From assembly GCF_045037415.1 (NCBI RefSeq), contig NZ_CP173438.1: a DNA stretch of 64,000 bases, one strand, 5' to 3'. Both the position numbers and the translations under genes were made by a program. The notes under the pieces were generated by a model. The model saw nothing but the letters and a program-made list of their open reading frames with translations, searched no databases and was not told the origin of the DNA. The DNA is from Escherichia coli (GTDB lineage Bacteria; Pseudomonadota; Gammaproteobacteria; Enterobacterales; Enterobacteriaceae). Every line of letters starts with the position of its first letter. Position 1 is the stretch's first letter. This document shows positions 13,885-64,000 of the stretch, in pieces.

Positions 13885-14562
<678 letters not shown>

Positions 14563-14602
14563 ATCCATCGCTGATGGTGCAGAACTTTAGTACACGATAA
14601 AA

Positions 14603-14634
14603 GCGGCTTCCTGACAGGAGGCCGTTTTGTTTTG
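14603..14634 (+). terminator. rho-independent terminator after dps
   Basis: hairpin cggcttcctgacaggaggccg followed by ttttgtttt. Confidence 0.75.
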
Positions 14635-14778
14635 TAGCCCGCCTCAACGCACTTATTTAGTGCATCCATCTGCTATCCCCAGCTGGTTAAGTAAATTTTT
14701 TGTATCCACATCATCACACAATCGTTACATAAAGATTGTTTTTTCATCAGGTTTTACGCTAAATAATCACTGTGTTGA

Positions 14779-14808
14779 GTGCACAATTTTAGCGCACCAG
14801 TTTGGTGC
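14779..14808. promoter_or_regulatory. NtrC binding sites upstream of glnHp2
   Basis: overlapping TGCACCA-N3-TGGTGCA-like dyads (gtgcacaattttagcgcaccagtttggtgcc). Confidence 0.6.
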
Positions 14809-14894
14809 CCCAGAATGGTGCATCTTCAGGGTATTGCCCTATAAATCGTGCATCACGTTTTTGCCGCATCTCGAAAAATCAATGAGTTGCAAAA

Positions 14895-14910
14895 CTGGCA
14901 CGATTTTTTC
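14895..14910 (+). promoter_or_regulatory. sigma-54 promoter glnHp2
   Basis: TGGCAC-gattt-TTTCA matches the -24/-12 consensus TGGCAC-N5-TTGCW, about 55 nt upstream of glnH. Confidence 0.7.
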
Positions 14911-14950
14911 ATATATGTGAATGTCACGCAGGGGATCGTCCCGTGGATAG

Positions 14951-15712
<762 letters not shown>

Positions 15713-15850: not shown

Positions 15851-16510
15851 ATGCAGTTTGACTGGAGTGCCATCTGGCCTGCCATTCCGCTTCTGATTGA
15901 AGGTGCCAAAATGACCCTGTGGATTTCGGTCCTCGGTCTGGCTGGCGGTCTGGTGATCGGATTGTTGGCAGGTTTTGCACGCACCTTCGGTGGTTGGATA
16001 GCCAACCACGTCGCGCTGGTCTTTATTGAAGTGATCCGCGGCACACCTATCGTCGTCCAGGTGATGTTTATCTATTTCGCCCTGCCGATGGCGTTTAACG
16101 ATTTACGCATCGACCCGTTTACTGCGGCGGTGGTCACCATCATGATCAACTCCGGCGCGTACATTGCGGAAATCACGCGTGGTGCGGTGCTGTCTATTCA
16201 CAAAGGTTTTCGTGAAGCAGGACTGGCGCTCGGTCTTTCACGTTGGGAAACCATTCGCTACGTCATTTTACCGCTGGCACTGCGTCGTATGCTGCCGCCG
16301 CTGGGTAACCAGTGGATCATCAGCATTAAAGACACTTCGCTGTTTATTGTTATCGGCGTGGCGGAACTGACCCGTCAGGGGCAAGAAATTATTGCCGGTA
16401 ACTTCCGCGCCCTTGAGATCTGGAGCGCCGTGGCGGTGTTCTATCTGATTATTACCCTGGTGCTGAGCTTTATTCTGCGTCGTCTGGAAAGAAGGATGAA
16501 AATCCTGTGA
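15851..16510 (+). CDS. glnP: glutamine ABC transporter permease
   Basis: 219 aa; ABC permease EAA-like loop; operon position. Confidence 0.95.
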
Positions 16511-17229
16511 TTGAATTTAAAAACGTCTCCAAGCATTTTGGTCCAACCCAGGTGCTGCACAATATCGATTTGAACATTGCTCAGGGCGAAGTCGTGGTGA
16601 TTATCGGGCCGTCCGGTTCCGGTAAATCGACCCTGCTGCGCTGCATCAACAAACTGGAAGAAATCACCTCCGGCGATCTGATTGTCGATGGCCTGAAGGT
16701 TAACGATCCGAAAGTTGATGAGCGCCTGATTCGCCAGGAAGCGGGTATGGTGTTCCAGCAGTTTTACCTCTTCCCGCATCTGACGGCGCTGGAAAACGTC
16801 ATGTTTGGCCCGCTACGCGTGCGTGGCGCGAATAAAGAAGAGGCGGAAAAACTGGCGCGTGAGCTGCTGGCGAAAGTCGGTCTGGCAGAGCGTGCACATC
16901 ACTACCCTTCCGAACTTTCTGGTGGTCAACAGCAGCGTGTGGCGATTGCCCGCGCGCTGGCGGTGAAGCCGAAAATGATGCTGTTTGATGAACCGACTTC
17001 CGCTCTTGACCCGGAACTGCGCCATGAAGTGCTGAAGGTTATGCAGGATCTGGCTGAAGAAGGGATGACGATGGTGATCGTGACCCACGAAATCGGTTTT
17101 GCCGAGAAAGTAGCTTCGCGCCTGATCTTTATCGACAAAGGCCGGATTGCAGAAGATGGCGATCCGCAGGTGTTGATCAAGAACCCGCCGAGCCAGCGCT
17201 TGCAGGAATTTTTGCAGCACGTCTCTTAA
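16507..17229 (+). CDS. glnQ: glutamine ABC transporter ATP-binding protein
   Basis: 240 aa; Walker [10 protein letters not shown] and signature LSGGQQQR; start overlaps glnP stop. Confidence 0.95.
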
Positions 17230-21294: not shown

Positions 21295-23577
21295 ATGGAA
21301 AACAATCGCAATTTCCCTGCCAGACAATTTCATTCGCTCACGTTCTTTGCCGGTCTTTGTATTGGTATTACGCCTGTGGCACAGGCACTCGCTGCCGAAG
21401 GGCAAGCTAACGCGGATGACACGCTGGTTGTCGAAGCATCAACGCCTTCGCTTTATGCGCCACAAAAATCTGCCGATCCGAAATTCTCGCGTCCGGTAGC
21501 GGATACTACCCGCACGATGACAGTGATTTCTGAACAAGTGATTAAAGATCAGGGTGCAACCAACCTTACCGACGCGCTCAAAAACGTCCCCGGCGTGGGT
21601 GCGTTTTTTGCGGGTGAGAACGGTAACTCCACCACTGGCGACGCCATTTATATGCGCGGTGCCGATACCTCTAACAGTATTTATATCGATGGCATTCGCG
21701 ATATCGGCAGCGTCTCGCGCGACACCTTCAATACCGAGCAGGTCGAAGTAATTAAAGGGCCGTCCGGCACCGACTACGGGCGCAGCGCACCGACAGGCTC
21801 GATCAATATGATCAGCAAACAGCCGCGCAATGATTCCGGCATTGACGCCTCCGCCAGTATTGGCAGCGCCTGGTTCCGCCGCGGCACGCTGGACGTCAAT
21901 CAGGTCATTGGTGATACCACTGCGGTGCGCCTGAATGTAATGGGCGAAAAAACGCACGATGCCGGACGCGACAAAGTCAAAAATGAGCGTTACGGCGTCG
22001 CCCCTTCTGTCGCTTTTGGCCTTGGTACAGCGAATCGTTTGTATCTTAATTATCTGCATGTCACCCAGCACAACACGCCAGACGGCGGCATTCCGACCAT
22101 CGGTTTACCGGGTTTTTCTGCCCCATCTGCGGGAACAGCGGCCCTGAATCATTCCGGAAAAGTTGATACGCATAACTTTTACGGCACGGATTCCGATTAC
22201 GACGATTCGACCACCGACACCGCTACCATGCGTTTTGAGCACGACATCAACGATAACACCACCATTCGCAACACTACGCGTTGGTCGCGCGTAAAGCAGG
22301 ATTACCTGATGACGGCGATTATGGGTGGAGCGTCGAATATTACCCAGCCCACCAGCGATGTGAATAGCTGGACGTGGTCACGCACGGCGAATACCAAAGA
22401 TGTGAGTAACAAAATTCTCACCAACCAGACCAACCTGACCTCGACGTTCTATACCGGCGCTATCGGTCATGATGTCAGTACCGGCGTGGAATTTACCCGC
22501 GAAACACAGACTAACTATGGCGTTAATCCGGTGACGTTACCGACGGTAAATATTTATCATCCTGACAGCAGCATTCATCCCGGCGGCCTGACGCGCAACG
22601 GCGCAAACGCCAATGGTCAGACGGATACCTTCGCAATTTATGCCTTCGATACGCTGCAAATCACCCGTGATTTTGAGCTGAACGGTGGGATCCGTCTGGA
22701 TAATTATCATACTGAATATGACAGTGCCACCGCCTGCGGCGGCAGCGGGCGCGGTGCCATCACCTGCCCTGCTGGCGTGGCAAAAGGTTCTCCGGTAACC
22801 ACCGTCGACACCGCCAAGTCGGGCAATCTGGTGAACTGGAAAGCCGGGGCGCTGTATCACCTGACGGAAAACGGCAATGTTTATATTAACTATGCCGTTT
22901 CCCAGCAGCCGCCGGGCGGCAACAACTTCGCCCTTGCGCAGTCTGGCAGCGGTAACAGTGCCAACCGCACCGATTTTAAACCGCAAAAAGCCAACACCAG
23001 CGAGATTGGCACCAAATGGCAGGTTCTGGATAAACGCCTGCTACTTACCGCCGCGCTGTTCCGTACTGATATTGAAAATGAAGTTGAGCAAAATGATGAT
23101 GGGACTTATTCGCAATATGGTAAGAAACGTGTCGAAGGCTATGAGATATCCGTGGCCGGGAATATCACCCCCGCGTGGCAGATGATTGGCGGCTATACCC
23201 AGCAAAAAGCAACTATCAAAAACGGCAAAGATGTTGCCCAGGATGGTTCCTCATCGCTGCCGTATACCCCGGAACACGCCTTCACCTTATGGAGCCAGTA
23301 TCAGGCAACCGATGATATTTCTGTTGGTGCGGGCGCACGGTATATCGGCAGTATGCATAAAGGTTCAGACGGCGCGGTGGGAACGCCAGCATTTACCGAA
23401 GGTTATTGGGTCGCCGACGCCAAACTGGGGTATCGGGTTAATCGCAATCTCGACTTCCAGCTAAACGTCTACAACCTGTTTGATACCGATTACGTCGCCT
23501 CAATCAATAAGAGCGGCTACCGTTATCACCCGGGCGAGCCAAGAACCTTCTTGCTCACAGCCAATATGCATTTCTGA
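21295..23577 (+). CDS. fiu: TonB-dependent catecholate siderophore receptor
   Basis: 760 aa; signal peptide; plug plus beta-barrel; C-terminal Phe. Confidence 0.93.
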
Positions 23578-45590: not shown

Positions 45591-45727
45591 TCATGATCGT
45601 GCTATTTCGCTACAGAATAAGGGAAAATGGCGGTTTTACTTTGATATACATCATCAGGGAGGCATAGCGTGCATCGTCCTTTAGAGGTAGAAGAAAATAG
45701 TTTGTATCCTCAATATTGGCAGGTTAA

Positions 45728-46696
<969 letters not shown>

Positions 46697-51900: not shown

Positions 51901-52937
51901 AGTGCTGCCGCGTTGTAATATTCGTCAGTGTCCGGGGTCATCAGCGCCTGCTCCAGACGCTGCTGTTGTTCGTTATCGCCCGCCAGCACGGCAGTTTGCT
52001 GCGGATTTAGCCCCAGTTTGCGGAACAGTTGCAGGTCTTTATCTTCTTCCGGATTCGGCGTGGTCAGCAGTTTGCAACCGTAGAAAATCGAGTTTGCGCC
52101 AGCCATAAAGCACATCGCCTGAGTCTGTTCGTTCATCTGCTCGCGTCCGGCAGAAAGGCGTACGTAAGAGGTCGGCATCATGATCCGCGCAACTGCAATG
52201 GTGCGAATAAAATCAAAGGCATCGACATCATCGTTATCCGCCAGCGGCGTGCCTTTCACCTTCACCAGCATGTTGATTGGTACGCTTTCCGGCGGCGTTG
52301 GCAGGTTTGCCAGTTGCAGCAATAATCCGGCGCGATCTTTTACTGTTTCGCCTAAGCCCACAATGCCGCCTGAACAGACTTTGATCCCGGCGTCGCGCAC
52401 TTTTTCCAGCGTATCGAGGCGTTCCTGATAGGTACGCGTGGTGATGATATTGCCGTAAAACTCCGGCGAGGTGTCGAGGTTGTGGTTGTAGTAATCCAGC
52501 CCGGCATTCGCCAGGCGCTGCGCCTGAGATTCACTCAACGTGCCCAGCGTCATACACGCCTCCAGCCCCATCGCTTTTACCCCCTGCACCATTTGTTCCA
52601 GGTACGGCATATCGCGTTCGTGGGGATTCTTCCACGCCGCGCCCATACAGAAACGCGTCGATCCCGCCGCTTTCGCTTTGCGCGCCGACTCCAGCACCTG
52701 TTCAACTTCCATCAACCGCTCGGCTTCCAGCCCGGTTTTGTAGCGCGAGCTTTGCGGGCAATATTTGCAATCTTCCGGACAAGCTCCGGTCTTAATCGAC
52801 AGCAAAGTGCTGACCTGCACCTGACGAGGATCGAAATGCTGACGATGCACCTGCTGCGCTTCAAACAGCAGATCCAGCAACGGTTTTTCAAATAATTCTG
52901 TGACTTGCGACAATGTCCAGCGTGGGCGGTGAGCCAT
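51897..52937 (-). CDS. bioB: biotin synthase (radical SAM)
   Basis: 346 aa; [11 protein letters not shown] radical-SAM motif. Confidence 0.95.
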
Positions 52938-53023: not shown

Positions 53024-54313
53024 ATGACAACGGACGATCTTGCCTTTGACCAACGCCATATCTGGCACCCATACACATCCATGACCTCCCCGCTGCCGGT
53101 TTATCCGGTGGCAAGCGCCGAAGGTTGCGAGCTAATTTTGTCTGACGGCAGACGCCTGGTTGACGGTATGTCGTCCTGGTGGGCGGCGATCCACGGTTAC
53201 AATCACCCGCAGCTTAATGCGGCGATGAAGTCGCAAATTGATGCTATGTCGCATGTGATGTTTGGCGGTATCACCCATGCGCCCGCCATTGAGCTGTGCC
53301 GCAAATTGGTGGCAATGACGCCGCAACCACTGGAGTGCGTTTTTCTCGCGGACTCCGGCTCCGTAGCGGTAGAAGTGGCGATGAAAATGGCGTTGCAGTA
53401 CTGGCAGGCCAAAGGCGAAGCGCGCCAGCGTTTTCTAACCTTCCGCAATGGTTATCATGGCGATACCTTTGGCGCGATGTCGGTGTGCGATCCGGACAAC
53501 TCAATGCACAACCTGTGGAAAGGCTATCTGCCAGAAAACCTGTTTGCTCCCGCCCCGCAAAGCCGCATGGATGGCGAATGGGATGAGCGCGATATGGTGG
53601 GCTTTGCCCGCCTGATGGCGGCGCATCGTCATGAAATCGCGGCGGTGATCATTGAACCGATTGTCCAGGGCGCAGGCGGGATGCGCATGTACCATCCGGA
53701 ATGGTTAAAACGAATCCGCAAAATGTGCGATCGCGAAGGTATCTTGCTGATTGCCGACGAGATCGCCACCGGATTTGGTCGTACCGGCAAACTGTTTGCC
53801 TGTGAACATGCAGAAATCGCGCCGGATATTTTGTGTCTCGGTAAAGCCTTAACCGGCGGCACAATGACCCTTTCCGCCACGCTCACCACGCGCGAGGTTG
53901 CGGAAACCATCAGTAACGGCGAAGCCGGCTGCTTTATGCATGGGCCAACTTTTATGGGCAATCCGCTGGCCTGCGCAGCAGCAAACGCCAGCCTGGCGAT
54001 TCTCGAATCTGGCGACTGGCAGCATCAGGTGGCGGCTATTGAAGCGCAGCTACGCGAGCAACTTGCCCCCGCCTGTGACGCCGAAATGGTTGCCGATGTG
54101 CGCGTACTGGGGGCAATCGGCGTGGTCGAAACCTCTCGTCCGGTGAATATGGCAGCGCTGCAAAAATTCTTTGTCGAACAGGGTGTCTGGATCCGGCCTT
54201 TTGGCAAACTGATTTACCTGATGCCGCCCTATATTATTCTCCCGCAACAGTTGCAGCGTCTGACCGCAGCGGTTAATCGTGCGGTGCAGGATGAAACATT
54301 TTTTTGCCAATAA
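53024..54313 (+). CDS. bioA: adenosylmethionine-8-amino-7-oxononanoate aminotransferase
   Basis: 429 aa from [20 protein letters not shown]...; PLP class-III aminotransferase. Confidence 0.94.
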
Positions 54314-63756: not shown

Positions 63757-64000
63757 ATGACCACACGCGTGATTGCTCTCGACTTAGACGGCACCTTATT
63801 GACCCCGAAAAAGACCCTGCTTCCATCATCGATAGAAGCCCTGGCCCGCGCTCGCGAAGCAGGCTATCGATTAATCATCGTCACAGGTCGCCATCACGTC
63901 GCTATTCATCCTTTTTATCAGGCGCTGGCGCTGGATACACCTGCTATTTGCTGTAATGGCACCTATTTGTATGATTATCATGCAAAAACCGTGCTGGAAG
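63757..64000 (+). CDS. ybhA: HAD-family pyridoxal phosphate/sugar phosphatase (5' part, runs off window)
   Basis: N-terminal HAD motif ALDLDGTLL; partial ORF truncated by window end. Confidence 0.88.
   Translation, partial: MTTRVIALDLDGTLLTPKKTLLPSSIEALARAREAGYRLIIVTGRHHVAIHPFYQALALDTPAICCNGTYLYDYHAKTVLE

Follow-up and report, generated by a model that had tools for sequence, protein, structure and literature searches.

Re-identification of the sigma-54 promoter glnHp2 in the dps-glnH spacer of an Escherichia coli genome, with a conserved NtrC-like dyad further upstream

The closest described counterpart of the locus analysed here is glnHp2 of Escherichia coli K-12 (Claverie-Martin and Magasanik 1991; EcoCyc; ChIP-seq site OS06), whose architecture of a sigma-54 site, NtrC sites and an IHF bending site is long-studied and already known. 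Published work treats it as a functional promoter that depends on NtrC and yields a separate primer-extension product (PMC1865078). The promoter is described as weak, and an IHF-induced bend is reported to be required for looping. Its 17-mer, CTGGCACGATTTTTTCA, is sigma-54 ChIP-seq site OS06, which was assigned to glnH at 44 bp from the gene, has a published PSSM score of 10.8 and is experimentally confirmed in EcoCyc (PMC4591121). In RNA-seq, sigma-54 overexpression raised glnH from 82 to 1006 reads. NtrC ChIP-seq of nitrogen-starved cells gave a 75-fold peak at glnHPQ, with direct binding cited, and in vitro genomic SELEX (gSELEX) placed peaks of RpoN holoenzyme and of NtrC between glnH and dps.

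The window (the whole stretch of DNA analysed, 64 kb long) carries the same locus. A 403-bp spacer lies between the dps stop codon (14560-14562) and three co-oriented genes that begin at 14966 on the + strand: glnH (14966-15712), glnP (15851-16510) and glnQ (16507-17229), the operon under glnHp2. These assignments combine open reading frames with the RefSeq annotation of 100% identical DNA, in which the gene order is dps, spacer, glnH, glnP, glnQ and ybiO. The spacer occurs in 5421 of 5426 E. coli genomes and is 100% identical in many complete ones. When aligned with K-12 MG1655, 396 of its 403 bases match and the cores of all elements are identical. Of the seven substitutions, only two affect an element, and each falls on a degenerate position: 14801 is the middle base in the spacer of an NtrC site, and 14883 is the first N in the IHF core. 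The 17-mer, the NtrC dyads, the IHF core, the leader and the genes are shared with K-12, and a functional difference is not expected.

The region 14780-14923 is thus almost certainly glnHp2, the sigma-54 promoter from which E. coli transcribes its glutamine ABC transporter operon glnHPQ under nitrogen control. The present analysis supplied the sequence, the coordinates, the match to the characterised locus, the motif statistics and the conservation data, while factor binding, factor dependence and the start site are taken from the literature, with published site positions reconstructed from the primer-defined numbering in PMC1865078. A preliminary description of this DNA had recognised the known nitrogen-regulated architecture of glnHp2. 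That recognition is borne out by the placement in the dps-glnH spacer, the identity with OS06, the published NtrC and RpoN binding and the dyads at -122 and -109, although the description omitted the IHF site (14877-14889), which is part of the known architecture. No evidence contradicting the identity was found; its weak points are a motif that is at chance level when taken alone, a -12 element without G and an offset ChIP peak.

The regulatory region is bounded upstream by the intrinsic terminator of dps (14600-14628, + strand), a 13-pair stem followed by a T run. An Rfam scan of 14400-15200 detected no known RNA family; the matches, ctRNA_p42d (24.5 bits against a threshold of 50) and STnc70 (20.3 against 40), were below threshold and lay on the dps terminator. 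At the downstream end, the Shine-Dalgarno sequence AAGGA (14955-14959) and the glnH start codon (14966-14968) form a + strand segment, 14955-14968, that is 83% conserved.

The sigma-54 element was located by motif match and by position weight matrix (PWM). The string TGGCACGATTTTTTCA, which has the form TGGCAC-N5-TTTCA, occupies 14896-14911 on the + strand, and the preceding C completes the 17-mer at 14895-14911, identical to OS06. The preliminary description had read the motif correctly and placed it at 14895-14910, one base too early. The element lies 43-44 nt upstream of the glnH ATG, which is the leader distance. Two published numbering rules put the transcription start at 14922-14923 (+ strand). 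The primer-defined fragment from -289 to +63 of glnHp2 (primers in PMC1865078) gives +1 at 14923, and the rule of the ChIP-seq paper, 19 bp downstream of the motif centre, gives 14922, 44 bp from the glnH start. If 14923 is taken as +1, GG lies at -26/-25, and TC stands at -14/-13 in place of the usual GC. The gSELEX supplement (PMC8743547) gives the glnH motif as CTGGCACGATTTTGTCA, one base off the CTGGCACGATTTTTTCA of K-12 and of the window; this is probably a transcription error in that table.

To score the site, a PWM was built from the 135 sigma-54 ChIP-seq sites of Bonocora et al. 2015 (PMC4591121), with the glnH site left out (134 sites). In this leave-one-out scheme the glnHp2 site reaches 13.2 bits, the 30th percentile of the 134 bound sites and rank 6 in the 64-kb window, so that the bipartite -24/-12 motif scores inside the range of experimentally bound sites, the T for G excepted. 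The poor PWM score named beforehand as grounds for rejecting the promoter was therefore not found. Dinucleotide-preserving shuffles of the window yield 4.1 +/- 1.9 PWM matches at or above the glnHp2 score. The consensus TGGCAC-N5-TTGCA with at most one mismatch is expected 1.9 times per shuffled window and was observed once. By chance the exact string would turn up 0.03 times per window, but the pattern was chosen post hoc. The sigma-54 motif alone is not beyond chance in 64 kb. In 300 shuffles, neither three NtrC-like dyads within 60 bp nor a sigma-54 match with at least two NtrC dyads 60-250 bp upstream ever arose; the glnHp2 call is safe only through this combination with activator sites, together with position and conservation.

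These figures also bear on the idea that the locus serves as a positive control for motif reading in the window. The reading itself was correct to within one base, but its value as a control is limited, since the PWM alone is at chance level; as a calibration, chance alone should produce about four sigma-54 matches of glnHp2 quality in 64 kb. Three other published sigma-54 ChIP-seq sites lie in the window: ybhK OS05 (45716-45732, + strand, 14.9 bits), bioB IS09 (52585-52601, - strand, 12.8 bits) and ybhA IA09 (63981-63997, - strand, 14.4 bits). Four further PWM matches, all on the - strand (53809-53825, 21307-21323, 2180-2196 and 1770-1786), score 13.2-15.0 bits, equal to or above glnHp2. All four are absent from the tables and supplements of the sigma-54 ChIP-seq paper that were searched, and three of these matches outscore glnHp2. 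They are probable false positives.

With its PWM score within the chance range for the window and a defective -12 element, the motif could be taken for a non-productive or chance site, like many intragenic ones, with glnHPQ driven only by the sigma-70 promoter glnHp1. The literature does describe many E. coli sigma-54 sites as transcriptionally silent. This reading is nonetheless barely credible. Only five genes behind intergenic sigma-54 sites rise on sigma-54 overexpression, and glnH is among them. The motif, its spacer and its distance from the gene are conserved across a bacterial order, and the combination of motif and NtrC dyads never arose in the 300 shuffles. Finally, the published work that describes an NtrC-dependent glnHp2 with a primer-extension product (PMC1865078) contradicts a silent site.

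Conservation was assessed at two depths. One genome per species was scanned with a GlnH peptide pattern, which gave 120 loci. Across about 50 orthologues in Enterobacterales, the best-scoring sigma-54 site stands at the same distance from the gene, with NtrC-like dyads 80-95 bp upstream. For base-level conservation, 26 Enterobacteriaceae were aligned, and conservation was expressed as identity to the window sequence. The -24 element is 94% conserved, the promoter spacer between -24 and -12 is 93% conserved and the -12 element is 98% conserved, against about 30% for the sequence between elements. Conserved elements amid variable spacers and flanks are the pattern that functional protein-binding sites should show. 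The peptide pattern also matched a glnH-like paralogue in Citrobacter and Enterobacter as well as genes of alpha- and beta-proteobacteria; because none of these has the glnHp2 promoter layout, they were excluded from the comparison. The second glnH-like gene of Citrobacter and Enterobacter carries a conserved, strong sigma-54-like motif of its own, (C/G)(T/C)GGCGGGGGTTTTGCA (12.8-15.1 bits), about 414-417 bp upstream of the pattern match (loci L004, L012, L060, L062, L087, L088, L104 and L108).

The -12 element of glnHp2 departs from the consensus at T14909. Among the 135 sigma-54 ChIP-seq sites, 134 have G at that position and glnHp2 is the sole exception. Of 50 Enterobacterales orthologues, 47 have T or C there, and the consensus G occurs only in Rahnella (two loci) and Rouxiella. 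Because T or C is kept so widely, with T also in the Salmonella site, the weakness of the -12 element looks selected. Restoring the -12 G reportedly strengthens polymerase binding and relieves the IHF requirement, according to the 1992 and 1997 Magasanik papers. In this strain, we infer, the weak -12 element makes glnHp2 dependent on IHF and on NtrC phasing.

Upstream of the sigma-54 element, NtrC sites were sought with the consensus TGCACCAnnnTGGTGCA, a 17-bp dyad with conserved GCAnnA and TnnTGC blocks (PMC8743547), allowing at most three mismatches. The site CGCACCAGTTTGGTGCC at 14793-14809 has two mismatches with both conserved blocks intact, and its centre, 14801, lies at -122. Within it, GCACCAGTTTGGTGC (14794-14808) is a perfect dyad, GCACCA-GTT-TGGTGC, with 6-bp arms. 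A second site, TGCCCCAGAATGGTGCA at 14806-14822, has a single mismatch, is centred on 14814 (-109) and overlaps the first by 4 bp. A weak third dyad, TGCACAATTTTAGCGCA at 14780-14796, has three mismatches and is centred at -135. The GCACCA...TGGTGC dyads named in the preliminary description are thus present, and an inverted-repeat finder recovers the same dyad symmetry upstream of glnHp2. The two overlapping dyads lie 81 and 94 bp upstream of the start of the sigma-54 motif. Their centres at -109 and -122 match the NtrC positions reported by Claverie-Martin and Magasanik 1991.

The alignment of 26 Enterobacteriaceae separates these dyads. The arms of 14793-14809 are 95% and 72% conserved around a spacer at 21%, and those of 14806-14822 are 80% and 90% conserved around a spacer at 49%. 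The dyad at 14780-14796 has its left half in variable sequence (33% conserved), and this half persists only in Escherichia. In the NtrC ChIP-seq data, the peak interval falls at about 14852-14932. Its downstream offset from the dyads, roughly 50-100 bp, is within ChIP resolution, although the agreement is not exact. A further conserved pair, TTGC ... GTGCA, occupies 14835-14853, near -79 and between the NtrC and IHF sites. Its spacing is one base longer than that of an NtrC dyad, and it may be a low-affinity site or a site of another factor.

The IHF core AATCAATGAGTTG at 14877-14889 (+ strand) is an exact match to the consensus WATCAANNNNTTR and spans -46 to -34, directly upstream of the -24 element. 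The consensus is short, with six matches in the window against 2.2 expected; the assignment is supported by its position, its 79% conservation and the literature. The same IHF core, AATCAATGAGTT, also occurs at 13911-13923 (- strand), about 140 bp upstream of the dps start codon; the dps promoter has a known IHF site at this place.

The upstream promoter glnHp1 is less sharply defined. A degenerate CRP site, ttgTATCCacatcaTCACAcaa, lies at 14700-14721 (+ strand), centred at -61.5 of glnHp1; its sequence is given in PMC1865078 and is identical here. From this published CRP centre, the glnHp1 start was placed near 14772. The corresponding core (14736-14772, + strand) would comprise a -35 element TTGTTT at 14736-14741 and a -10 element TAAATA at 14760-14765, and is about 80% conserved. 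A sigma-70 consensus scan detected no promoter in the dps-glnH spacer and hence lends no support to this placement, a result that fits the weak polymerase binding reported for glnHp1 (PMC1865078). An inverted repeat, ACAATCGTTA/TAAAGATTGT at 14718-14739, overlaps the -35 element of glnHp1. It is about 79% conserved across Enterobacteriaceae, better than the adjoining degenerate CRP site.

With glnHp1 placed in this way, the dyads at 14793-14822 fall at about +22 to +50 of its start, and they could be read as mainly an operator that represses glnHp1, and not as an enhancer of glnHp2. There is a precedent at glnA, where NtrC sites overlap and repress glnAp1. We consider a mainly repressive role highly improbable. 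An operator role is compatible with activation, and only activation makes sense of the conserved IHF site and of the distance to the -24/-12 element. Published NtrC-P-dependent activation is, moreover, assigned to glnHp2 (PMC1865078).

How far the glnHp2 enhancer extends is a separate matter. Just past the dps terminator, an NtrC-like dyad, cGCACttatttaGTGCA, lies at 14648-14664, with its centre at -267 of glnHp2 and at -116 of the inferred glnHp1 start. In the 26 Enterobacteriaceae its arms are 100% and 92% conserved, its spacer 46% and its flanks 32-36%. Of the 26 sequences, 24 carry GCAC-N7-GYGC at 227-251 bp (mostly 238-240 bp) upstream of the -24 motif; in about 400 nt of upstream DNA per species, the other matches of this pattern are known NtrC sites only. 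Relative to the NtrC consensus, the dyad has four mismatches in the window and in K-12, and 2-3 in most other genera. Here GCACTT breaks the GCAnnA block, whereas TAGTGC keeps TnnTGC. No description of this dyad was found in the literature searched.

These observations raise the possibility that the enhancer is larger than the two published sites, which would extend the main explanation and not replace it. The distal dyad would then also bind NtrC and bracket glnHp1, either contributing a dimer to the ring or closing a loop that silences glnHp1 when glnHp2 is on, and the Escherichia-specific dyad at 14780-14796 might join. In favour of such an extension are the dyad's character as a conservation island and its fixed distance of 238-240 bp from the -24 motif in most Enterobacteriaceae. 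Its 2-3 mismatches in other genera also resemble those of proven sites, and the glnH control region has been reported to resemble closely that of glnA, where additional NtrC sites occur. On the other hand, the four mismatches in the window and K-12 caused the dyad to be missed by the three-mismatch scan, the literature searched does not mention it, and the ChIP-seq and gSELEX peaks are too coarse to resolve it. Another protein recognising TGCAC-N7-GTGCA is possible, and the dyad at 14780-14796 is not conserved outside Escherichia. On balance this extension is possible, if somewhat unlikely.

The glnHp2 transcript would begin with a hairpin, GUCACGCAGGGGAUCGUCCCGUGGAU (14923-14948, + strand), which is the minimum-free-energy structure of its first 26 nt. 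A hairpin at this 5' end is kept in most Enterobacterales leaders with differing stem sequences, such as GGGG/CCCC, CAGGC/GCCTG, GGCAC/GTGCC and GGGCAAG/CTTGTCC in different genera. Its folding energy compared with shuffles is not unusual (z = -0.16), and only its persistence across species stands out. The hairpin may be a 5' stabiliser of the mRNA. A more elaborate proposal, which we regard as rather improbable, is that the distal dyad is an undescribed third NtrC site bracketing glnHp1, through which NtrC-P would loop out glnHp1 while activating glnHp2, and that selection would have kept the conserved defective -12 element and the conserved leader hairpin as additional components of the same switch.

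For the main reading, a mechanism can be drawn from established knowledge of glnHp2 and of NtrC/sigma-54 systems. Under nitrogen limitation, NtrB phosphorylates NtrC, and NtrC-P dimers fill the overlapping dyads at -122 and -109, where they form an ATPase ring. A sharp DNA bend, imposed by IHF on its site at -46 to -34, lets the ring meet the sigma-54 holoenzyme held in a closed complex on 14895-14911. ATP hydrolysis then opens the complex, and glnHPQ is transcribed from 14922/14923. The T for G in the -12 element would keep the closed complex weak and dependent on IHF and correctly phased NtrC. Just upstream of the NtrC sites, the weak, CRP-assisted sigma-70 promoter glnHp1 (start about 14772) would provide nitrogen-independent expression. 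Since the glnHp2 call re-identifies a classic sigma-54/NtrC/IHF promoter, it carries little weight as a finding; the conservation of the -12 base, the distal dyad and the leader hairpin are the features that would refine the textbook system.

Comparison with other sigma-54 promoters sets this architecture in context. The orthologous site of Salmonella Typhimurium glnHp2 (STM0830), TGGCATGATTTTTTCATT, has the same non-consensus TTTCA, with T in place of C at the sixth position of the -24 element. Sigma-54 binds this site, and the operon is 7-fold sigma-54-dependent. E. coli glnAp2 resembles glnHp2 in being activated by NtrC-P from upstream dyads and in its tandem arrangement with a CRP-responsive sigma-70 promoter, in the region of which the NtrC sites lie. 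The two differ in arrangement and strength: the NtrC sites of glnAp2 are separated (-140 and -108) and accompanied by extra low-affinity sites, whereas those of glnHp2 overlap; glnAp2 lacks an IHF site and is IHF-independent, unlike glnHp2; and the -12 element of glnAp2 retains the G (TTGGCACAGATTTCGCT) where glnHp2 has T, glnAp2 being the stronger promoter. Klebsiella nifH/nifU and Pseudomonas Pu share with glnHp2 an IHF site between the enhancer and a weakly bound -24/-12 element, where the bend delivers the activator. They use other activators, NifA and XylR, and their IHF site lies more centrally in the loop, whereas that of glnHp2 abuts the -24 element.
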